Shown: piece by piece, positions 388 through 16,860 of the stretch
Numbering within the stretch: position 1 is the stretch's first letter
How the letters are laid out: the number at the start of each line of letters is the position of its first letter
Assembly (NCBI GenBank): GCA_048938895.1
Contig: JBHLLU010000072.1
Span: 1 to 16,860, forward strand
Reading direction: 5' to 3'
Source of the DNA: Promethearchaeota archaeon
GTDB taxonomy: Archaea > Asgardarchaeota > Lokiarchaeia > Sigyniarchaeales > SOKP01
DNA: 16,860 nt
Translations under genes and position numbers: made by a program
The notes under the pieces: generated by a model
Database searches by the model: none
The model's input: only the letters and a program-made list of their open reading frames with translations
Told to the model about the DNA's origin: nothing

Positions 388-416
388 AAATATAGACACC
401 TTTTGTAATAATATAG

Positions 417-435
417 AAAAAAGAAAAGATTTTTT
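417..435. terminator. Putative bidirectional oligo(T) terminator between convergent genes
   Basis: An A-rich tract AAAAAAGAAAA (417-427, T-rich on the - strand) and T6 (430-435, + strand) lie between the stops at 387 (+) and 449 (-). Archaeal intrinsic terminators are oligo-T tracts. Confidence 0.4.
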
Positions 436-448
436 ATATAATTATATG

Positions 449-1096
449 CTAAAGTTTTGCTTCTTCTTCAATCTTTATTGTTTCTGCCTTTTCCTCGACT
501 TTTTGGATTGATTGAAGAATCTTTTCGTGATAAGCACGTTCAATTTCTACAATTTTTTTAAGAACATTTTGCATTGTCTCAAGCTTCTTTTTATTGAATT
601 CTTCCGTGGCCATTTTTACATCCGCTTCTTCTTTAGCGGCTTTTTCTTGCGCAGCCTTCAATTTACTTTCAGCAGTTTCTAACTCATTTGGTTTTAGCTT
701 TTCTTTTGGTTTACTTTTTGACTTATTTAGGCTTTTTTCTGCCTTTTCAAGCTCTTTTGCTGCTTTTTCAGATTCACTTTGCTCTGTTTGGAGTTTTTTC
801 AAGTTAACTACAAGATCATTCAATGGTGCGATGTATTCATCTCGAAGTTTTGTTACTTTATCTAAACGTTCTTTTTCAATAGCTTCAAAAGTGTTTGCTA
901 ATGAACTTATTGCTTGTCCCAAAGAGGGAGTTTCGGTTTCAGCATAACTTTTTAATGCAGTAACAGAATCCTTAATTTCTTTGGAAACAGTTTCTTCTGC
1001 ATTGATATATCGATTACTCTCTTTGATTATTTCACTGATTTTATTATTTGCGATTCCCAAAGAATCGGATACATTATCTAAAAACTTTTTAAACAC
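449..1096 (-). CDS. BAR-domain-like three-helix coiled-coil protein (FAM92/CIBAR-like)
   Basis: 215 aa with all-helical heptad character. LKSYAETETPSLGQAISSLANTFEAIEKERLDKVTKLRDEYIAPL and FNKKKLETMQNVLKKIVEIERAYHEKILQ resemble recalled human FAM92A segments (INAYAATETPHLKLGLMNFADEF...[41 protein letters not shown]). The GTG start is preceded by AGGTGA (1108-1103) with 6-nt spacing. Confidence 0.75.
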   Translation of the reverse strand: MFKKFLDNVSDSLGIANNKISEIIKESNRYINAEETVSKEIKDSVTALKSYAETETPSLGQAISSLANTFEAIEKERLDKVTKLRDEYIAPLNDLVVNLKKLQTEQSESEKAAKELEKAEKSLNKSKSKPKEKLKPNELETAESKLKAAQEKAAKEEADVKMATEEFNKKKLETMQNVLKKIVEIERAYHEKILQSIQKVEEKAETIKIEEEAKL

Positions 1097-1363
1097 GATA
1101 TTTCACCTTTTACCGAATTTCAGTTAGAATAAGAAGTCAAGCTTAATAATTTTTTTGTCTAAAAATTATAAGCTGGGAAAAAATAGTGATAAATTATTTT
1201 GATACATTTTTCTACTCAAATTTTTATTAGTAAACTATAATCAATATTTTAAGAAAGAACTTGATAAATAGACTAGAACAGATATTATATTCATATAAAT
1301 ACCTATAAAATAATAACTTCAGTTGGGAGTGTAGTTACTAGTAATAAAAGAGGTTGTTTAAAT

Positions 1364-4300
1364 TTGAGAATGTTAGTTTTAAGTCATCGGAGTTCGTATT
1401 TCTCACCATCTATATTTTTAAAAATGCCTGAAACAATTCAGAGAGAAGACATCAATCAGGTTCCATTATTAATTGATATTTATGAAAAAGGTTTTTTTAT
1501 ACATACGTTTGGAACGTTTAAAACAGCAAATCTAATTTTTAACATCCCAAGTGAATATTCAAAAACAGGAAGTGAACGTCTTTTAATTTCATTAGTTGTT
1601 GATAGTGATGCTAAAATCAAATCGACGTTAGCTGAAGACTATTTAGAAGGTATAGTGGAAGAAATCAAAAAAATTAAAGATATTTTCAAAGCATTCTACG
1701 TAGATTCTATGTTTGATAAAGGAGATCCTATTAAATTTGGGGAATTAAAAAAATTGCTTGAAGTATTTTATAATTCTTTTTCTGAAGAAGAGGTCATATT
1801 TGAGCAGAAAGAGGCGAGAGTATTAATTTTCGGGCTTTCTCAAGCAGGAAAAACAACAATCATTAAAACCCGAAGAAAATCTGTAACAAAAACAACTTTT
1901 CCAACTATAAATGTGGACATCTCAAAAATTATAGTCAATAATGTATCTATGTTAACCTATGATATTCCTGGAAAGTATAAAGCGAAAGAAATTTGGAAAC
2001 CCTATCTTAAAAATCAGGATGGATTGATTTTTGTTTTGGATGTTACGGACACCATAAGATTTTCATATGCTCGTGAACTATTGCATGAAATTGCTGAGAA
2101 ACCAGGATTAAGCGAGTTGCCACTCCTAATCCTTTTTAACAAGACTGATAGAAAACGAGTAGATATAAAAGATCTAGAAGAAGCTATGGGTGTAAATGAT
2201 CTCAGATATAGACCCATGAAAACATTTTTGACTAGTGGGATTATGAATCAAAATATTGATGAGGCGTTTAATTGGCTTTCATTAAAAATTGCTGAACGAG
2301 CAGAATTATATACTCCCCGAACAGAAATTGGGTTAATTTTTTGCAAATGGGATGAAAATTTAGGGATTAAAATCGAAGCAGTGTATCCTAAAAATGCTTT
2401 TGAAAATCCTGAATTGATTTCTGTTAAGAGTTTTTCAATATCACAGTATCTTTTTGGTGGTGATGTATTTAGGCCAACCTCAGTAATTCTTCCATTTCCA
2501 CACCTAAAATCAAATGCAGCGATCTATTTTGATTCTGTTTCAGACGAAAGTATTAGGGGTGGAGCATTACCGTTATCCTTAATAGTTTATTACAATGAAA
2601 AAATTCCTAAAAACATAATTAACCAATTTAGCGCATTCATTCTTAAACATTTTGAAGACATAAAAAATAATTATCTAGATAAAAATCAGGTTATAAATAT
2701 TCTTGAGACTATCCATAGTGCTATAAATCATCAAATAAGTATATATCAACCATCGATTGAAGCACTTAAAACAGCAGAATTGCGTTATGAAGCTTTGTTT
2801 AAAGCTGCTCGCGATGCAATTTTGATAATAGATAGAAAATCAGGCATTATTATGGATGTGAACCAAGAAGCAGAACAATTATTTCAACGACCTTTTGAAG
2901 ATTTTATTGGATTGCACTCAAGTCAAATATTAAGTGGTATCATTGACATTGATTTTAACGAGGAAGTCTTTGAACAGCTTAATTATCCCTTTCCATTGAG
3001 GTTAGAAGTCATTGATAATGCAGGAAATTTAATTCCTGTTGAAATTAACCTGAGTGAAGTTCAAATAGGAGGTCAAATTTATATTCAATATATTATTCGA
3101 GATATTCGTAAGAGAATAGAAGCAGAAATTAAATTGAAGCATTCTGAAATAAAATATCGTTATCTCTTTAAAGAATCGCCTTATTCTGTTCTACTTATTG
3201 ATCCTAAAGGTGCTTTGGTAGATTTTAATCCTGTTTTAGAGAAAACATTAGGATATGTAAGAGAGGAATTAATCGGAAGAAAATTTGTAGATCTTTCAAT
3301 TATACATCAAGATTATATTGTCGATGTTCTTAGAAGATTGAAAAAAGAAGAAAGAGGCAAGCAATTTCCTCCATTAGAAATCCAAATTTATCAAAAAAAT
3401 GGTAATCTTATTTGGGTAAATATGCAAACTTCTTTTGTCGATATTGGTGATGATACTTTTTATCAAATTATTTGTCAAAACATAACTGAAGAGAAAAAAA
3501 TTGAGCAGGAACTAATGAAGATTTCAAGGTTTAAAGCGATTATTACAGCAATTACATCAAGGTTTGTAGGAATACAGGATTTTAGTCAAGCCATTATTGA
3601 ATCACTTAGAGATATAGGTGAATTTGTAAACGCAACGCGAGTCTATCTTTATATTCTCAATGAAAATTTTAATTTCATAAAAAGAAATTATGAATGGTAT
3701 AGAAAAGTTATGCATCCTCAAATATCTTTACCTGAAAATATAGAGATGAATAATTTTCCTTGGTTAACAGAGAAACTGTTAGAATCTGATTATTTGTATG
3801 TGAAAAGTGTAGACTACCTTCCTACAGAAGCGGTTAATTTGAAATATTTTCTTGAAAATCAAAGAGTGAAGAATCATTTAACCTATTCAGTAAAAATAAA
3901 TGGAATCTTAGAAGCATTAATCTGTTTTGATGATATTAATGATAGGGATTATTGGATTGAAGAAAATCTTGATTTAATAGGCATAATTTCAGACATTTTG
4001 AAAAATGTATTATTACGAAAATTAGCAGAAGAGTATTTACGCGTAAGTGAAGAAACTATTCATCAAGAATTTGATAGAGAGTATTTTTACAAGGAATTAT
4101 TTGTTAATGATATGAATTCTATCATAAACAACATTCAATTATCACTAAACGAATATGAAACGGTTGATAACCAACTTATATTGAAAAGTAAAAAAGAGAT
4201 ATTGGATTCAATTAAGGATCAATGCATTAACAGCAAATTTTTAATAGATATAATACATAAATTAACAATCTTAGACCAAACAAAATTCTTAATTGAGACC

Positions 4301-4735
4301 GTAAATTTAAATAATGTCATAAGTGATGTTAAGGAATTTATCACAAATAGTTATTCAAGTAAAAAAATTATTATAAATGTAGAACAACCTCCTGAAATTC
4401 TTTATGTAAAAGCAGATAAATTTCTAATTGATGTTTTTGTCAATATACTTATGAGTTCTATTAGATATAATATCAATCCAACTATTGAACTTAAAATTAT
4501 CGTCTTTAGAAGCTCACAGGATAAAATAAATTATATTAAAGTTGAATTCATCGATCACCAAAAAGAAATTCTTAATATCGGAAAAGATATGATCTTCAAA
4601 AAGGAAAGAGAAAAGGATAGTAAGATAAAAGAAATAATATTAGGATTTTTATTAGTTGAAAAAATTCTAAATAACTACAATGGCAAAATTTGGGTTGAAG
4701 GAGATTCCTTTGTTATATTATTACCTGAAGCTTAA
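1364..4735 (+). CDS. Multidomain signalling protein: longin/uDENN-like + Arf-like small GTPase + longin/uDENN-like + 2xPAS + GAF + degenerate histidine kinase (HisKA/HATPase_c)
   Basis: GTPase at aa ~150-310: G1 GLSQAGKTT, G2 PTI, G3 YDIPGK, Arf-like IWKPY and GLIFVLD, G4 NKTD, AFNWLS. Residues ~321-460 carry IFCKWDENLGIKIEAVYP...DESIRGG..LSLIV. PAS domains at aa ~471-583 (RYEALF..ARDAILIID...VN...RDI) and ~594-710 (KYRYLF..SP...LID..G...FN...LGY.REELIG...NIT). GAF at aa ~735-885 (RVYLY...EW...FPW...W.EE..DL). Kinase-like tail at aa ~900-1123 ending GKIWVE...FVILLPEA. TTG start with GAGGT 9 nt upstream; alternative ATG at 1370. Confidence 0.88.
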   Translation: MRMLVLSHRSSYFSPSIFLKMPETIQREDINQVPLLIDIYEKGFFIHTFGTFKTANLIFNIPSEYSKTGSERLLISLVVDSDAKIKSTLAEDYLEGIVEEIKKIKDIFKAFYVDSMFDKGDPIKFGELKKLLEVFYNSFSEEEVIFEQKEARVLIFGLSQAGKTTIIKTRRKSVTKTTFPTINVDISKIIVNNVSMLTYDIPGKYKAKEIWKPYLKNQDGLIFVLDVTDTIRFSYARELLHEIAEKPGLSELPLLILFNKTDRKRVDIKDLEEAMGVNDLRYRPMKTFLTSGIMNQNIDEAFNWLSLKIAERAELYTPRTEIGLIFCKWDENLGIKIEAVYPKNAFENPELISVKSFSISQYLFGGDVFRPTSVILPFPHLKSNAAIYFDSVSDESIRGGALPLSLIVYYNEKIPKNIINQFSAFILKHFEDIKNNYLDKNQVINILETIHSAINHQISIYQPSIEALKTAELRYEALFKAARDAILIIDRKSGIIMDVNQEAEQLFQRPFEDFIGLHSSQILSGIIDIDFNEEVFEQLNYPFPLRLEVIDNAGNLIPVEINLSEVQIGGQIYIQYIIRDIRKRIEAEIKLKHSEIKYRYLFKESPYSVLLIDPKGALVDFNPVLEKTLGYVREELIGRKFVDLSIIHQDYIVDVLRRLKKEERGKQFPPLEIQIYQKNGNLIWVNMQTSFVDIGDDTFYQIICQNITEEKKIEQELMKISRFKAIITAITSRFVGIQDFSQAIIESLRDIGEFVNATRVYLYILNENFNFIKRNYEWYRKVMHPQISLPENIEMNNFPWLTEKLLESDYLYVKSVDYLPTEAVNLKYFLENQRVKNHLTYSVKINGILEALICFDDINDRDYWIEENLDLIGIISDILKNVLLRKLAEEYLRVSEETIHQEFDREYFYKELFVNDMNSIINNIQLSLNEYETVDNQLILKSKKEILDSIKDQCINSKFLIDIIHKLTILDQTKFLIETVNLNNVISDVKEFITNSYSSKKIIINVEQPPEILYVKADKFLIDVFVNILMSSIRYNINPTIELKIIVFRSSQDKINYIKVEFIDHQKEILNIGKDMIFKKEREKDSKIKEIILGFLLVEKILNNYNGKIWVEGDSFVILLPEA

Positions 4736-7669: not shown

Positions 7670-7758
7670 TTAAAAAATTATCTAAATTTCCCAGTATTTT
7701 TTTGATTATATAAATAGTGTATTTAATTTATAGATTATGGACTCTGCTGTTATATGAA

Positions 7759-7795
7759 ATTTATAAAAATTGGTATTATTAGAATTTTTGTAAAT
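7759..7795. promoter_or_regulatory. Inverted repeat (13-bp arms, 11-nt spacer) in divergent promoter region; candidate operator
   Basis: ATTTATAAAAATT (7759-7771) matches the reverse complement of AATTTTTGTAAAT (7783-7795), which is ATTTACAAAAATT, at 12/13 positions. The AT-rich context lowers significance. Confidence 0.35.
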
Positions 7796-7839
7796 ATATA
7801 TATTTCTTTTTAACTTAATTTAATCTACCAAATCCAATT

Positions 7840-8058
7840 GTGAGTAAATTGAGAATAGAATTTGATGAAGCACTAGAGCTTTGTGAACAAGTTCGACTTG
7901 ATAATAAAAATAAACGACTTTCCTTTAACAAATTATGGTGTTGGGGCTGTTTAAAGTTCGCTAAAAGCCCTGATAAACGATGTTTCGCAAATGCAGAATA
8001 CGGAGCTAATACTGGCTGTGCACAAGTAAATAAATTGTACAAAAAATTAATGGAATAA
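7840..8058 (+). CDS. Small Cys-rich hypothetical protein (probable metal binding)
   Basis: 72 aa, GTG start, five Cys in the pattern ALELC...WCWGC...KRCF...GCAQVN. It has protein-like composition, fills an otherwise empty gap, and is divergent from the FrhB-like gene. Confidence 0.7.
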   Translation: MSKLRIEFDEALELCEQVRLDNKNKRLSFNKLWCWGCLKFAKSPDKRCFANAEYGANTGCAQVNKLYKKLME

Positions 8059-8085
8059 AGCTATAATTATGAACTCAAGCCGTAC

Positions 8086-8129
8086 AATTATGTCAAATTG
8101 AAATGTATATAAAGTCAATTAACATAATT
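8086..8129. promoter_or_regulatory. Imperfect inverted repeat bracketing a TATA-like box
   Basis: AATTATGT (8086-8093)/ACATAATT (8122-8129) and AATTGA (8096-8101)/TCAATT (8115-8120) flank TGTATATAAA (8104-8113), about 50 nt upstream of ATG 8162. Confidence 0.35.
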
Positions 8130-8195
8130 CTTATAAGAATCCATTATTAGAGGGAAGTAAAATGAATGAATTAAGTAAGGTAGATGATGTAATTT

Positions 8196-8423
8196 ATGTA
8201 TTTCAGAGAACAAGAACGACAATTACTTAGAAATATTGATGGAGAGCTCAAGAATCCTCATCCATCTAAAGAACGTATTATAAATTGTTTATATGATTTA
8301 CGCACTAAAGAGAATTTCCAAGATCTTTCTGATTCAAAATTCTATAATATTTTCTTTCTACTAGGTACAATTTGTATTATAACAGTTATCTTGAGTAAAA
8401 AATTCAAAAGTTTGAAAGTATAA
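8196..8423 (+). CDS. Hypothetical small protein with C-terminal hydrophobic segment; possibly frameshifted (true start 8162)
   Basis: 75 aa ending IFFLLGTICIITVILSKKFK, which looks like a TM segment plus basic tail. There is no RBS before 8196, whereas GAGGGA-6nt-ATG lies at 8150-8164 in another frame. Confidence 0.45.
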   Translation: MYFREQERQLLRNIDGELKNPHPSKERIINCLYDLRTKENFQDLSDSKFYNIFFLLGTICIITVILSKKFKSLKV

Positions 8424-8475
8424 TATTATATTTAAAGAATTTTTAAAATTATCACAAAAAAAGAGCGAAAAGAAA

Positions 8476-9618: not shown

Positions 9619-10515
9619 ATGAAAGAAGATTCTGCTTTATTATTGAAGAAATCTTATGAAAAAGGTGAGAAGATAAGTACAGAAGAAACTCAAAAAATGC
9701 TTAAGCAATCAGATCTTATAAAAATGCTTTTAGAACCACCTAAACGTCCTCCTACTACATTTGTGGGCATTCGTGCCCTCGAATGGCGCTTATTAGAACT
9801 TTCAGAAATACCATTTTCATATACCTTAAACGAAGTACAAAATTGGATTAAAATTCTCGTAGAAAAGTCATTTATACAAGAAGGCTTTTCCTTGGAAGGG
9901 ACTAAAGACAATTTACTTGCATGCCACAATTCACTGATAACTACAATCCTTTTAAAGATGCCATATGACGATAAAGAAAAAATCGATGCAGGGATAGATT
10001 GGATATTAAAATATCAATCAATTGAGAGGGGAAAAGAATGCACTTGGCCAGGTAAAGACCTTTACACTAGGTTTGGGGGTTGCATGAAAAAAATTCCTTG
10101 TTATTATGGCGTAATCAAGGCCATGATCACACTTACTGAGTATAAGAAACGGTATGGTGACTCTGATGAGCTCAATAACAAACTTTCACAAGGATTAGAA
10201 TATATCCTAAAACATAGAGTGTTTATGAAATTATCTTCAGATAATCCGATAGAAGATTCAATTATCTTAAATTTTTACCCTTATACCTATAGATCGAACA
10301 TAATAGAAATATTATCATTACTTAAAGCAAATAATTTACTTAGAGATGAACGCTGTAATGATGCTTTAAAGATTTTAAAAAAAAAACAACGATCTGATGG
10401 ATACTGGCAGGCCGATACTTCTTACATGAAATCTACATGGATAGATTTCGATATACCTAAGAAACCGGGATTATGGATAACATTCATAATAAAAAAACTA
10501 TTTACATCCAAATAA
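9619..10515 (+). CDS. Conserved hypothetical protein, terpenoid cyclase/prenyltransferase-like alpha-alpha barrel superfamily
   Basis: PFTB/squalene-cyclase-like repeats IDAGIDWILKYQ, LSQGLEYILKH and DALKILKKKQRSDGYW. Family-like motifs LACH, GGCM...PCYYG..K, YPYTYRSNIIEIL, DER and KPGLWIT. No DxDD cyclase motif. Confidence 0.65.
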   Translation: MKEDSALLLKKSYEKGEKISTEETQKMLKQSDLIKMLLEPPKRPPTTFVGIRALEWRLLELSEIPFSYTLNEVQNWIKILVEKSFIQEGFSLEGTKDNLLACHNSLITTILLKMPYDDKEKIDAGIDWILKYQSIERGKECTWPGKDLYTRFGGCMKKIPCYYGVIKAMITLTEYKKRYGDSDELNNKLSQGLEYILKHRVFMKLSSDNPIEDSIILNFYPYTYRSNIIEILSLLKANNLLRDERCNDALKILKKKQRSDGYWQADTSYMKSTWIDFDIPKKPGLWITFIIKKLFTSK

Positions 10516-12768: not shown

Positions 12769-13299
12769 CTAAGAAATTGTTGACTTAATGTTACTTACCA
12801 TACTTTTCGTAAGGTCCAGAAATGCTTTTTCTACATTATCACCTGTTTTTGCAGAAGTTTCCTTATATAAACACTTTTCACTTTTTGCGTAATTTTCAGC
12901 TTCAGTTCTGTCTACTATTTGACCGATTTCAGGAATTAAGTCAGATTTATTTCCAATTATAACTTTAGGGATGTCCTTATTCATAATACTACGCATTTCT
13001 GATAACCACGTTTTCATGCCGGAATAAGTATGCTGTCTTGAGAGATCAAATACGATTAGAGCACCTTGAGCACCTTCAAAAAAGCTACGATGCAAGAATT
13101 TAAACCTTTCTTGCCCACCAATATCCCAAATGTGGAGTTTTGCGATTTTTGAAGGTTCATATTCAAGAGTTTTAGTTAAAAAATCAACCCCTATAGTCAT
13201 TTTATATTTTAATTCAAATTCATTATGGACGAACCGGTTTAATAAGCTGGTTTTACCAACTGCACTAGGACCGACAATAATTACTTTAAAGGCTTCCAT
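12769..13299 (-). CDS. Rab-like small GTPase (Ras superfamily)
   Basis: FKVIIVGPSAVGKTS (G1), TIGVDF (G2/RabF1), KLHIWDIGGQERF (RabF2/G3), FFEGAQGALIVFDLS (RabF4/F5-like), GNKSD (G4), ETSAKTG (G5). No C-terminal Cys or hypervariable tail. Confidence 0.95.
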   Translation of the reverse strand: MEAFKVIIVGPSAVGKTSLLNRFVHNEFELKYKMTIGVDFLTKTLEYEPSKIAKLHIWDIGGQERFKFLHRSFFEGAQGALIVFDLSRQHTYSGMKTWLSEMRSIMNKDIPKVIIGNKSDLIPEIGQIVDRTEAENYAKSEKCLYKETSAKTGDNVEKAFLDLTKSMVSNIKSTIS

Positions 13300-14530: not shown

Positions 14531-16860
14531 TTGAAAGTTAATCAGGAGCAAAAGGAATTCCACATTTCTATAAAAGATGTTGTATTTGCCTCATCTGAAC
14601 GAAGATCTTACACATCTGCGATCCCCTTGCGCATGCGTGGATTAAAAGGAACAAAGCTTCATCAAAAATTTCAAGAAAGTCGAAAATCAAATCAAAAAGG
14701 ATTTCAACGAGAAGTTTTGGTACAGTATCAGATAAATATCCAAGGTTGGACTTTTATTATTTCTGGACGAGTAGATATCATTTACGAAAAAGATGGGATA
14801 TTGATTATTGAAGAAATAAAGTCAATAATAAACCTAGAGGAGTTTTCTCTTGAATCTCAAGCAGCAGAAGAGTATTGTTTACAATTGTTATTATATGTAC
14901 ATCATTTTATCCAATTTGAGAAACCTATTAAGAGCCGCCTTGTATTAATTGATATTTATACTGAAGAAATAAAAATTATTGAAGTTCCCCATAAAGATCT
15001 TTCAGATTATATAAAACAACAATGTGAACTTATTTTAACCACATGGGAAGATGAACAAAGATTAAAAGCTGAACAACGTAATCGTGTGAAAACTCTTGTA
15101 TTTCCTTTTGAGGATTATCGTCCATATCAGAAAGAGATTATCCAAAAAACCGCAAAATGCATCCAAAATCGAGATCGCTTAATGCTTTTAGCTCCTTCTG
15201 GTTTAGGAAAGACTATTGGAACTCTTTTTCCTGCTCTAAAATTTGCGTTAAAGGAAAACCTACGTGTGTTTGTAGTAACGTCAAAGACTACTCAACAGCA
15301 TATCTATCGACAGACATTACAATTTTTTACTACTAAAAAAGCGAAGTTTAATTCGATTATTCTCACTGCTAAAGAAAAAATGTGCGTAAATGATTTCTTT
15401 ATTTGCGAAAAATCGTTATGTCCCTACCTTAAAAACTATGAAAATGTCCCATTGGACAAAATCGTCTCTGAGATGCTTACAAAACAAGTCATTGATGCTC
15501 GGTACATAAGAAAAACAGCAAAAGCTCATATAGTATGTCCATTTGAAATTTCTCTTGATTGTGCTCTTTACTGTGATCTAATTGTAGGAGATTATAATTA
15601 TGTATTTCATCCTTACATCAAATTAAAACGGTTTTTTGACCAACCTTATGATGATATCATATTGATTGTTGATGAAGCGCATAATTTACCTTTCCGAGCT
15701 ATGACGTATTATTCTCCAGAAATTACCTTACAATCTGTAAAAAATCTTAACAATTATTTACATTCACTTCACATAGCGCCATCCATTGAGAAAAAAGGTA
15801 TTGTTTTATCTGAACAAATTGCTCAGTATATTATGGAATTGAAATCTCAATTCACTGATTTTGATGGAAAAAAGCCTATTCTCGTGAAAATTGATAAAAA
15901 ATTCTTTCGGAGGGTGTTGAAGGAATTTGAAGAATTTCTTTTTTCTTTTATCGAAGCCTATTCTTTTCAAAAAGGAATTCAACCAAGAGGGAAAGATAAA
16001 GTCATAGAATTTACCCTAAATTTACGTCATTTCACAAATATTTTGAAAGAAAGTGATGATCCTGAGTTTAGTGAGTTACTATATAGTAAAGAGGGAAAAA
16101 TCAAAATATTGTGCAAATCTGCTGCACCAAAACTTGAAAAACAAATAGCAGGTTTCCATTCGGTTATTATGCAATCTGCTACCTTATTTCCACCTGACTA
16201 TTTCCAAAAAATGTTAGGACTTCCCCCATCAACACAAAAATTTCAATTTGATTCTCCTTTCCCTCAACAAAATCGATTATACTTACTTATCCCTAATCTC
16301 TCGACTCGATATGAGGATCGACAGGAATCTTATGATCAAATTGCTAGGATAATTTGTAATACAATTAAGATTAGAAAAGGTAATTATTTATCTTTTTTTC
16401 CTTCATTTGCGTATCTTAGGGCTGTACAACGTGAAATTGAAGATCTTTCATTCCCAGCTGAACTTATAGTACAAGAACGTAAAATGAGCGAAAGTAAACG
16501 GAGAAATATTTTAAAAAAGTTAAAGTCTGCTGATGGAAATTATCTACTCTTAGCAGTGCATGGAGGAATCTTTAGTGAAGGTGTGGATTTTATTGGAGAT
16601 ATGGCTATTGGTGCATTTATTATTGGTCCCGGGCTCCCTTCATATTCAAAAGAACAGGATTTAATGCAGAAATATTTTGAATTAAAATGGAAGAGAGGAT
16701 TTGAGTATGCTTACCGAAATCCTGGGATGATGAGAGTTATTCAAGCTGCGGGACGTATTTTCAGGACATCTACTGATCGAGGATTTGTCATGTTAATTGG
16801 CCATCGATTTAATACGCAGTATTATAATAGTGTTCTTCCAAGAGATTGGAAAATTGAATA
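14531..16860 (+). CDS. PD-(D/E)XK (Cas4/RecB-like) nuclease fused to DinG/XPD (Rad3)-family Fe-S DNA helicase; 3' end at window edge
   Basis: Not in the ORF track. I translated it by hand from TTG 14531 (upstream in-frame TAG at 14501) and found no stop to the window end. Nuclease motifs: GTKLHQKFQ, REV, SGRVDII (14762), IEEIKS (~14807), QLLLY (14882). Helicase motifs: Q motif FPFEDYRPYQ, Walker A APSGLGKT (15191), Fe-S Cys at 15383/15404/15419/15536 (CPFE), GDYNYVF, DEAH (15671), QSATL, FFPSF, GGIFSEGVDF, QAAGRIFR. It ends ...LPRDWKIE, so it is almost complete. Confidence 0.93.
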   Translation, partial: MKVNQEQKEFHISIKDVVFASSERRSYTSAIPLRMRGLKGTKLHQKFQESRKSNQKGFQREVLVQYQINIQGWTFIISGRVDIIYEKDGILIIEEIKSIINLEEFSLESQAAEEYCLQLLLYVHHFIQFEKPIKSRLVLIDIYTEEIKIIEVPHKDLSDYIKQQCELILTTWEDEQRLKAEQRNRVKTLVFPFEDYRPYQKEIIQKTAKCIQNRDRLMLLAPSGLGKTIGTLFPALKFALKENLRVFVVTSKTTQQHIYRQTLQFFTTKKAKFNSIILTAKEKMCVNDFFICEKSLCPYLKNYENVPLDKIVSEMLTKQVIDARYIRKTAKAHIVCPFEISLDCALYCDLIVGDYNYVFHPYIKLKRFFDQPYDDIILIVDEAHNLPFRAMTYYSPEITLQSVKNLNNYLHSLHIAPSIEKKGIVLSEQIAQYIMELKSQFTDFDGKKPILVKIDKKFFRRVLKEFEEFLFSFIEAYSFQKGIQPRGKDKVIEFTLNLRHFTNILKESDDPEFSELLYSKEGKIKILCKSAAPKLEKQIAGFHSVIMQSATLFPPDYFQKMLGLPPSTQKFQFDSPFPQQNRLYLLIPNLSTRYEDRQESYDQIARIICNTIKIRKGNYLSFFPSFAYLRAVQREIEDLSFPAELIVQERKMSESKRRNILKKLKSADGNYLLLAVHGGIFSEGVDFIGDMAIGAFIIGPGLPSYSKEQDLMQKYFELKWKRGFEYAYRNPGMMRVIQAAGRIFRTSTDRGFVMLIGHRFNTQYYNSVLPRDWKIE

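Follow-up and report, generated by a model that had tools for sequence, protein, structure and literature searches.

A native FAM92-like BAR-domain protein encoded in a Lokiarchaeial genome

Identification of a BAR gene in a Lokiarchaeial contig

The stretch of DNA analysed here (the window) is one whole contig of 16,860 bp (JBHLLU010000072.1) from a Promethearchaeota archaeon of the class Lokiarchaeia, order Sigyniarchaeales (GenBank assembly GCA_048938895.1), and our subject is a gene at 449..1096 on its minus strand that encodes a 215-aa BAR-domain protein. The source genome comprises 4.65 Mb in 174 contigs (98.7 % complete, 7.5 % contamination) and carries a single copy of this gene; the G+C content of the window is about 30 %. 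The product is a classical BAR protein native to Lokiarchaeia, and among eukaryotic proteins it is most closely related to FAM92/CIBAR. BAR domains are paired, crescent-shaped modules with which eukaryotic cells sense and bend their membranes. An archaeal BAR protein of this kind had been proposed in an initial annotation made from the sequence, and Pfam, PDB sequence, profile–profile and fold comparisons all favoured FAM92/CIBAR. The motifs quoted in that annotation were all present in the translation, namely MFKKFLDNVSDSL at residues 1-13, YAETETPSL at 51-59, IAPL at 89-92 and LNKSKSKPKEKLKP at 123-136, as was the third-helix string running from F167 through H190 to L194. The coding sequence and the parts of it on which the following sections draw are these.

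449..1096, minus strand: complete coding sequence of the 215-aa BAR-domain protein, with a GTG start at 1096-1094 and a TAG stop at 451-449 (open reading frame (ORF) list, Pfam FAM92 and PDB CIBAR1 matches, AlphaFold2 model)
941..1093, minus strand: helix 1, residues 2-52, of which residues 15-51 form the predicted antiparallel helix 1/helix 1' dimer contact (AlphaFold2 model)
920..946, minus strand: family signature Y-A-x-T/S-E-T-P-x-L at the turn between helices 1 and 2, residues 51-59, aligned to the same motif in CIBAR1
713..928, minus strand: helix 2, residues 57-128, with the kink proline P91 at nt 824-826 (AlphaFold2 model)
683..736, minus strand: lysine-rich distal tip, residues 121-138, in the loop between model helices 2 and 3
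455..685, minus strand: helix 3, residues 138-214, with residues 165-215 forming a predicted antiparallel helix 3/helix 3' zipper centred on H190 (AlphaFold2 model)

Sequence similarity to eukaryotic FAM92

Taken as a single protein, the sequence matched Pfam FAM92 (PF06730) marginally, at 23.9 bits against a cut-off of 23.6 (E 3.3e-5), and an NCBIfam scan returned no match. When its relatives were scanned, 21 of 21 matched FAM92 at E <= 0.01 (best 1.3e-11), with BAR_3 and BAR matched by four and three, respectively. A phmmer search of the PDB returned CIBAR1 at 2.8e-9 (9uhd) and 5.4e-7 (8ceg), followed by histidine kinases at E values of at least 0.38. Three profiles were used, A1 comprising 21 relatives, A2 23 eukaryotic FAM92 sequences and A3 41 clan representatives. 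Profile A1 matched CIBAR1 at 6.2e-13 and 1.3e-11 over positions 10-205 and matched no other BAR chain in the PDB at E <= 1. The profile comparison suggested in the initial annotation, here an hhalign run of the family against the 23 eukaryotic FAM92 sequences, gave a probability of 98.7 % (E 1.6e-16, 173 columns, 21 % identity). A hidden Markov model (HMM) of the same 23 sequences scored the archaeal protein at 61.1 bits. The maxima among controls were 6.0 bits (2000 full shuffles) and 16.5 bits (2000 block shuffles), with -6.1 for the reversed sequence; these lie so far below 61.1 bits that the FAM92 similarity is therefore not a composition effect.

Conservation was concentrated in recognizable positions. 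Y51, E55, T56, P57, S58 and L59 of the signature were invariant in 21/21 relatives, as were P91 and, in helix 3, F167, K171, L172, H190, K192 and L194. Position 54 is T or S in the family, T54 aligning with a T of FAM92A, and the E55 column is acidic (D/E) in 90 % of 42 clan representatives. The signature residues that align with FAM92A are Y51, T54, E55, T56, P57, P91 and H190. We nonetheless refer to the protein as 'FAM92-like' and do not call it a FAM92 orthologue, because the central lipid patch (see below) and the Chibby partner both fail: Chibby (PF14645, CBY1) had no match at E <= 0.1 in the 98.7 %-complete genome. The archaeal host has neither cilium nor mitochondrion. Searches of the genome for other BAR families gave a best score of 14.9 bits for PF03114, under its cut-off, and no match to PF09325 (Vps5-type). 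No link between FAM92/CIBAR and archaea was found in the literature searched, subscription journals lying outside its scope.

Predicted fold and homodimer

The AlphaFold2 model built on A1 (mean predicted local distance difference test score (pLDDT) 91.1, predicted template modelling score (pTM) 0.74) consists of three long helices spanning residues 2-52, 57-128 and 138-214. The best Foldseek match of this model was the BAR domain of mouse FAM92A, with template modelling (TM) scores of 0.89/0.90, a root-mean-square deviation (rmsd) of 1.7 A and 19 % identity over 205 columns, and the invariant P91 aligned with its kink proline, Pro167. Human FAM92A1, APPL, endophilin, arfaptin and amphiphysin came next, and nearly all top rows among the 98 matches at E <= 0.001 belonged to the BAR superfamily (classical, N-, F- and I-BAR). 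VIA-align likewise placed FAM92A first (Z 19.1, rmsd 1.8 A, 207 residues), ahead of arfaptin (17.7), SNX1, FAM92A1 and endophilin (17.3) and amphiphysin (16.8), with Z ranging from 19.1 to 14 over FAM92A, arfaptin, SNX1, endophilin, amphiphysin and APPL; for long-helix models Z values below about 13 can be unspecific, and the values here lie above this. On the model, the fold is that of a classical BAR domain, with FAM92A the best match by a modest Z margin.

The dimer modelling suggested in the initial annotation yielded a predicted FAM92A-type antiparallel homodimer held together through helices 1 and 3. The three dimer runs scored 0.79, 0.78 and 0.79, the highest score among three controls was 0.00, and each run gave 181-189 contacts with partner pLDDT of at least 89 and contact agreement of at least 97 %. 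In calibration, 20 of 30 proteins solved as homo-pairs attained the mark applied to this score, as did 1 of 23 solved as single chains; because our prediction was run on an alignment of our own making, these counts apply to it only roughly. The predicted interface comprises residues 15-70 and 165-215, with its tightest contact at H190-H190'.

This interface was compared with that of the FAM92A crystal structure, mapped through ungapped phmmer and profile alignments. Works cited here by PMC number are cited from excerpts of their text. The FAM92A crystal interface has 22 positions, 10 in helix 1, three at the start of helix 2 and nine in helix 3 (PMC12269497). In helix 1 (interface 2), FAM92A L99, I102, F103, Y106 and K109 correspond to archaeal residues 23, 26, 27, 30 and 33, and L113, K116, L120, I124 and Y127 to 37, 40, 44, 48 and 51; where helix 2 begins, the counterparts of L139, F142 and F146 are 63, 66 and 70; and in helix 3 (interface 1), L253, F256, I257, M261 and H264 correspond to 179, 182, 183, 187 and 190, and L268, F271, Y275 and I278 to 194, 197, 201 and 204. 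The predicted interface includes 22/22 of these homologous positions. Mutation of the FAM92A counterparts of L48, Y51, I182, V183 and H190 broke the dimer, and a salt bridge links E131 and K245 of FAM92A (PMC12269497). The equivalent of K245, K171, is invariant and lies in the predicted interface; that of E131, E55, is also invariant and lies outside the named predicted interface.

Distal tip and charge pattern

The turn between helices 2 and 3 forms the distal tip of a BAR arm. The lysine-rich loop that the initial annotation had placed at the tip indeed lies at this turn, and its basic residues are conserved across the clan. Tip lysines alternate (125, 127, 129, 131, 133 and 135) alongside prolines 130 and 136, and the net charge of residues 121-138, which lie outside the predicted dimer interface, is +5. 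Across the 42 clan representatives the share of basic residues is 95 % at K125, 85 % at K129, 85 % at K133 and 76 % at K135, and the conserved basic positions of the clan (K114, K118, K121, K125, K127, K129, K133 and K135) occupy distal helix 2 and the tip. The tip motif with its two prolines was kept among representatives sharing just 20-50 % identity. It aligns with the R-x-R-x-R tip of FAM92A, being six residues longer and lysine-based, and the FAM92A tip arginines are one of the lipid-binding clusters listed for that protein (PMC12269497). For the remaining basic regions of FAM92A, the mapping of regions 3 and 4 shifted between alignments and region 5 was not alignable.

The N-terminus

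The initial annotation had also proposed an N-terminal amphipathic helix of the N-BAR type (H0), on the strength of the first residues of the protein.

1055..1096, minus strand: residues 1-14, amphipathic basic-hydrophobic start of helix 1 (MFKKF...), from the hydrophobic moment and the AlphaFold2 model

The amphipathic character of this segment stood, its hydrophobic moment of 0.57 ranking 18th of 202 windows; its identification as an extra helix did not. The stop-to-stop frame around the gene is 217 aa, and a longer N-terminus is therefore impossible. In the model residues 1-14 make up the first turns of helix 1 (pLDDT 87), and the superposition places residue 1 at the beginning of FAM92A helix 1 (chain residue 8) and at residue 28 of endophilin, 34 of amphiphysin, 38 of BIN2 and 41 of BRAP1. 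In endophilin, amphiphysin and BIN2, H0 presumably lies upstream of the superposed point. The segment lies outside the predicted dimer interface, which starts at residue 15, its hydrophobic/basic pattern is kept in the 42 clan representatives, and conservation within the family reaches at least 90 % at M1, F2, K3 and K4; some relatives lack four or five of the first residues. Amphipathicity at the N-terminus is in any case weak evidence because every helix of the bundle is amphipathic. FAM92A1 itself is described, in the excerpt cited, as lacking an additional helix (PMC11266426).

Relatives, distribution and phylogeny

In a protein collection clustered at 90 %, 217 relatives were found at E <= 0.001, the best 120 of which were 65-100 % identical. 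Their names include 'BAR domain protein' (Lokiarchaeum sp. GC14_75) and 'BAR domain-containing protein' (Promethearchaeota), and some carry the labels Thor-, Hermod- or Hodarchaeota as given by their sources. One relative of 467 aa (P0161) has HEAT repeats in its first half and matches the family profile over 248-440, where it has no Pfam domain of its own. Archaeal BAR proteins have reportedly been noted since 2015. Published mentions of Lokiarchaeum BAR domains date back to 2016 (PMC4917890), and a Vps5-type BAR has been described in Asgard archaea (PMC10307638). The remark in the initial annotation that prokaryotic BAR proteins are rare and little characterized holds, though this family has carried the annotation 'BAR domain protein' since the first Lokiarchaeum genome.

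We located 29 loci in Asgard species-representative genomes (metagenome-assembled genomes (MAGs) and chromosomes). In surveys that scored seven candidates per genome, so that absences are soft, profile A1 matched 55 of 400 genomes of the phylum, all within the order of the window (44/134, 1/1, 6/14 and 3/4 by family) and including 20 of 53 other genomes of the same genus. The broader profile A3 matched 63 of 400, of which 59 were in the order, two in another family of the class and the remaining two weak matches (7e-5 and 7e-4) in other classes. The clan is thus almost confined to the class of the window and is patchy within the genus. The gene is strongly conserved where present (65-97 % identity) yet patchy and without a fixed neighbourhood, a pattern that loss or mobility could explain.

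Searching 1.84 billion representative sequences with profile A1 gave 118 matches at E <= 0.001, 99 of which were scanned against Pfam; the 19 left out were short fragments and one protein of 5692 aa. Among the 99, 39 were strong FAM92 proteins (93-352 bits), the first at E 1.3e-9, and none was a strong member of another eukaryotic BAR family. The other 60 had weak mixed BAR-family matches or none, and five of these looked up by name included one Promethearchaeota MAG protein and three eukaryotic proteins. The named matches (30 looked up, 13 of them without an organism name) came from molluscs, amphioxus, a bird, a bat, a fish and an acoel, as well as from Pigoraptor (Filasterea), Chromosphaera, which we take to be an ichthyosporean, and Amoeboaphelidium (Fungi, Aphelidiomycota). 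Weaker FAM92-like proteins were seen in Mataza (Rhizaria) and Blattamonas (Metamonada).

A quick IQ-TREE phylogeny of 71 rows and 226 columns, containing archaeal and FAM92-like rows only, separated 48 archaeal from 23 eukaryotic rows (eukaryotic by FAM92 score or name) with 99 % support in the Shimodaira–Hasegawa-like approximate likelihood ratio test (SH-aLRT). No eukaryote was nested among the archaeal rows, and two of the 23 eukaryotic rows were long branches. The tree excludes recent transfer; it does not prove FAM92 to be the closest eukaryotic BAR lineage. The spread of FAM92-like proteins over Opisthokonta, Rhizaria and Metamonada is consistent with an origin predating the last eukaryotic common ancestor, and the near-restriction of the archaeal proteins to one Asgard class fits ancient transfer or many losses equally well.

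Tandem BAR proteins of the same clan

A Lokiactin co-immunoprecipitation from Lokiarchaeum ossiferum contained two BAR-domain proteins, Bar1 and Bar2, neither significantly enriched; they ranked 327 and 429 in the proteome of 3,061 expressed proteins (PMC13716822). Bar2, an abundant protein, is NEF87_003839 (UYP47554.1; P0125 in our set), a 451-aa tandem BAR protein and the fifth-best match of the family profile (E 1.7e-54). Its AlphaFold2 model (pTM 0.75) shows two three-helix units joined by a low-confidence linker and points to packing of the units against one another. Tandem BAR chains of 448-547 aa, this one included, were observed in the same order (P0125, P0127 and P0258-P0260, with frames in genomes G134, G135, G137, G138 and G139). 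Judging from the model, such tandem proteins may be ready-made asymmetric 'dimers'. A search of longer proteins with profile A3 found no fused forms, which is weak evidence.

Genomic context

The immediate flanks of the BAR gene and the remainder of the window contain the following.

1103..1107, minus strand: GGTGA, a putative Shine-Dalgarno-like word read from the sequence, 6 nt 5' of the GTG start
411..430, minus strand: T-rich run, a candidate archaeal oligo-T terminator about 20 nt past the stop codon, in the 61-nt gap to the convergent gene
1364-4735, plus strand: 1123-aa fusion of an Arf-family small GTPase (residues 146-307), two PAS domains and a histidine-kinase-type ATPase
7670-8475: 800-nt stretch with no ORF of at least 90 aa and no Rfam family or tRNA
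9619-10515, plus strand: 298-aa ORF with no Pfam match at E <= 0.001
12769-13299, minus strand: stand-alone Ras-family small GTPase, 176 aa
13453-14394, plus strand: 313-aa ORF with no Pfam match at E <= 0.001
14531-16858, plus strand: XPD/Rad3-type helicase (DEAD_2, HBB, Helicase_C_2), cut by the contig end

Scans of the whole window for Rfam families and tRNAs returned no match. The 9619-10515 ORF has a partial copy (76 % identity) at another locus of the BAR gene (L012). A 117-aa antisense ORF at 594-947 on the plus strand was taken as a by-product of K/E-rich codons on the other strand of the BAR gene, whose product is 17 % K and 17 % E with a net charge of -2 and a pI of 5.85. The Arf-PAS-kinase gene is divergent from the BAR gene across a gap of 267 nt, and elsewhere it stays near the BAR gene only in the closest relative (locus L002, 88 % identity). 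When three ORFs per side were clustered, no conserved neighbourhood emerged, the largest cluster covering 4 of 26 loci. The source genome holds 89 Ras-family matches.

Proposed function and alternative explanations

Our best explanation, with a probability of roughly 60 %, is that the product is a stand-alone classical BAR protein that works as a homodimer in tip-mediated membrane sensing or stabilizing. The analysis itself supplies the fold, the FAM92/CIBAR homology and the predicted FAM92A-like interface, and from these we infer that the protein binds membrane, what its tip does and where in the cell it acts. Each 215-aa chain would form three long helices, and two chains would pair antiparallel through helices 1 and 3 into a six-helix core from which two arms project, each ending in a conserved lysine/proline-rich tip. 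The dimer would sit on the cytoplasmic face of the cell membrane, binding anionic lipid head groups mainly by its two tips and by basic distal helix 2, and might thereby sense or stabilize curved membrane, for example at the necks, bases or branch points of actin-filled protrusions, possibly in cooperation with the Lokiactin cytoskeleton. Cultured Lokiarchaeia do possess actin-filled, rapidly remodelling protrusions, the membrane-side machinery of which is described in the excerpt cited as unknown (PMC13716822).

Several observations weigh against this proposal. The modelled dimer may owe its score to the model's memory of solved BAR dimers, which would make it a measure of likeness, not of binding. 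A concave classical BAR domain fits membrane that bulges towards the cytoplasmic protein, not the inside of a protrusion tube, and a link to protrusions is therefore not straightforward. The protein as a whole is slightly acidic, and the most positive patch of FAM92A, formed by R108, K109, R112, R114 and K116 on its central concave face (PMC12269497), aligns with N32, A33, T36, S38 and E40, of which 0/5 are basic; among the 42 clan representatives these columns hold 0-16 % K/R at four positions and 52 % at position 36. The gene is moreover dispensable, given that none of five genomes of the genus (95-100 % complete) had it when re-searched with every candidate scored (best E 0.029). In the Lokiactin pull-down the log2 fold changes were 1.95, 0.41 and 0.44 for Bar1 (p 0.18) and 2.96, 1.47 and 0.55 for Bar2 (p 0.075) (PMC13716822), and a membrane experiment on any member of the clan was not found in the literature searched.

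Some of these points would sit as well with an arfaptin-like scaffold that does little membrane bending of its own and instead binds a partner such as a small GTPase or an actin regulator, which we consider unlikely. In structure, arfaptin ranks second among the matches (Z 17.7 and 17.6), the window protein is net acidic and lacks the central basic patch of FAM92A, the genome is rich in Ras-family genes, the divergent neighbour is an Arf-family GTPase fusion, and an Arf GTPase was significantly enriched in the L. ossiferum Lokiactin pull-down that also contained Bar1 and Bar2 (PMC13716822). Genomic context does not bear this out, however: the neighbourhood is not conserved, the Arf-PAS-kinase gene is kept beside the BAR gene just in the closest relative, and of the 29 loci, nine carry a Ras-like gene at a distance of up to 6 kb, against about 21 % expected (89 genes in 4.65 Mb), so that no clear excess emerges. 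Furthermore, the surface feature with the strongest conservation is the lysine-rich tip, which is typical of lipid binding.

The tip also has a competitor at the other end of the chain, where residues 1-13 could act as a membrane-inserting amphipathic wedge that drives curvature in the manner of an N-BAR protein. We regard this as distinctly improbable: the hydrophobic moment, the conserved first four residues, the periodicity kept in the clan and the position outside the predicted interface speak for it, but the open frame leaves no extra segment, the residues are the first turns of helix 1 superposed on that of FAM92A and map downstream of the presumed place of H0, their amphipathicity is expected in a bundle helix, relatives can do without several of them, and FAM92A1 is described without such a helix. 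Least probable by far is that the gene encodes a generic K/E-rich coiled coil or derives from a eukaryotic contaminant or a recent transfer. The K/E-rich composition, the marginal Pfam score and additional weak matches to coiled-coil families might suggest it; the score of 61.1 bits against a shuffle maximum of 16.5, the archaeal-type neighbours on the contig, the 29 Asgard loci and 55 matching genomes of the phylum, the supported split between archaea and eukaryotes and the identity of only about 20 % to eukaryotic FAM92 all contradict it.

With the homodimeric, tip-binding BAR protein as the preferred reading, a wider hypothesis can be put forward tentatively, at odds well below even: that a single BAR protein older than the eukaryotes gave rise to both the Lokiarchaeial BAR clan and eukaryotic FAM92/CIBAR, and that the archaeal module, as a tip-anchored dimer or tandem, couples curved membrane to Lokiactin in protrusions. 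If true, the now ciliary/mitochondrial FAM92/CIBAR proteins would be the eukaryotic lineage that survives from a membrane-curvature module of Asgard archaea. Few eukaryotic modules for shaping membranes have clear counterparts in Asgard archaea, and BAR proteins are among them; should the kinship to FAM92/CIBAR prove specific when set against other BAR families, one BAR lineage would predate eukaryotes. Being small, soluble and built of a single domain, with a predicted FAM92A-like interface and conserved tip lysines, the window protein would offer an easy biochemical entry point.

Comparison with known BAR proteins

The closest eukaryotic counterparts are FAM92A and FAM92B (CIBAR1/CIBAR2; PF06730; 9uhd, 8ceg), with which the archaeal protein shares a three-helix BAR monomer of equal length and, in the case of CIBAR1, the Y-A-x-T-E-T-P-x-L turn, the kink proline, the F-x-x-x-K and F/Y-H-x-K-x-L elements of helix 3 and the basic tip. 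It differs from CIBAR1 in sharing only about 20 % identity with it, and from FAM92 proteins in lacking a C-terminal tail (215 aa versus 209-430 aa in FAM92 matches) and in having a host without a Chibby homologue in the genome search. Arfaptin, amphiphysin and endophilin share the fold (Z 15-18, rmsd 2.3-3.3 A over about 180-208 residues) but had no sequence match at E <= 1 in the profile search of the PDB, and in contrast to them the archaeal protein has no H0, SH3 or other partner domain.

Within the archaea, Bar2 of L. ossiferum belongs to the same clan, its halves being 35 % and 30 % identical to the window protein (E ~1e-23) and one half superposing on FAM92A with a TM score of 0.90 normalized to the target; it differs in carrying two BAR units per chain, whereas the window protein has one unit and needs a second copy. 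Closer still are the BAR proteins of Candidatus Lokiarchaeum sp. GC14_75 (P0030, 73 % identity over the full length) and of a Promethearchaeota MAG (P0003, 89 %, likewise full length), which are 215-216 aa long and carry precomputed PF06730 assignments. The window protein is another species' copy of these with no substantial difference, and the gene is one more well-supported copy of a family already called 'BAR domain protein' in databases.

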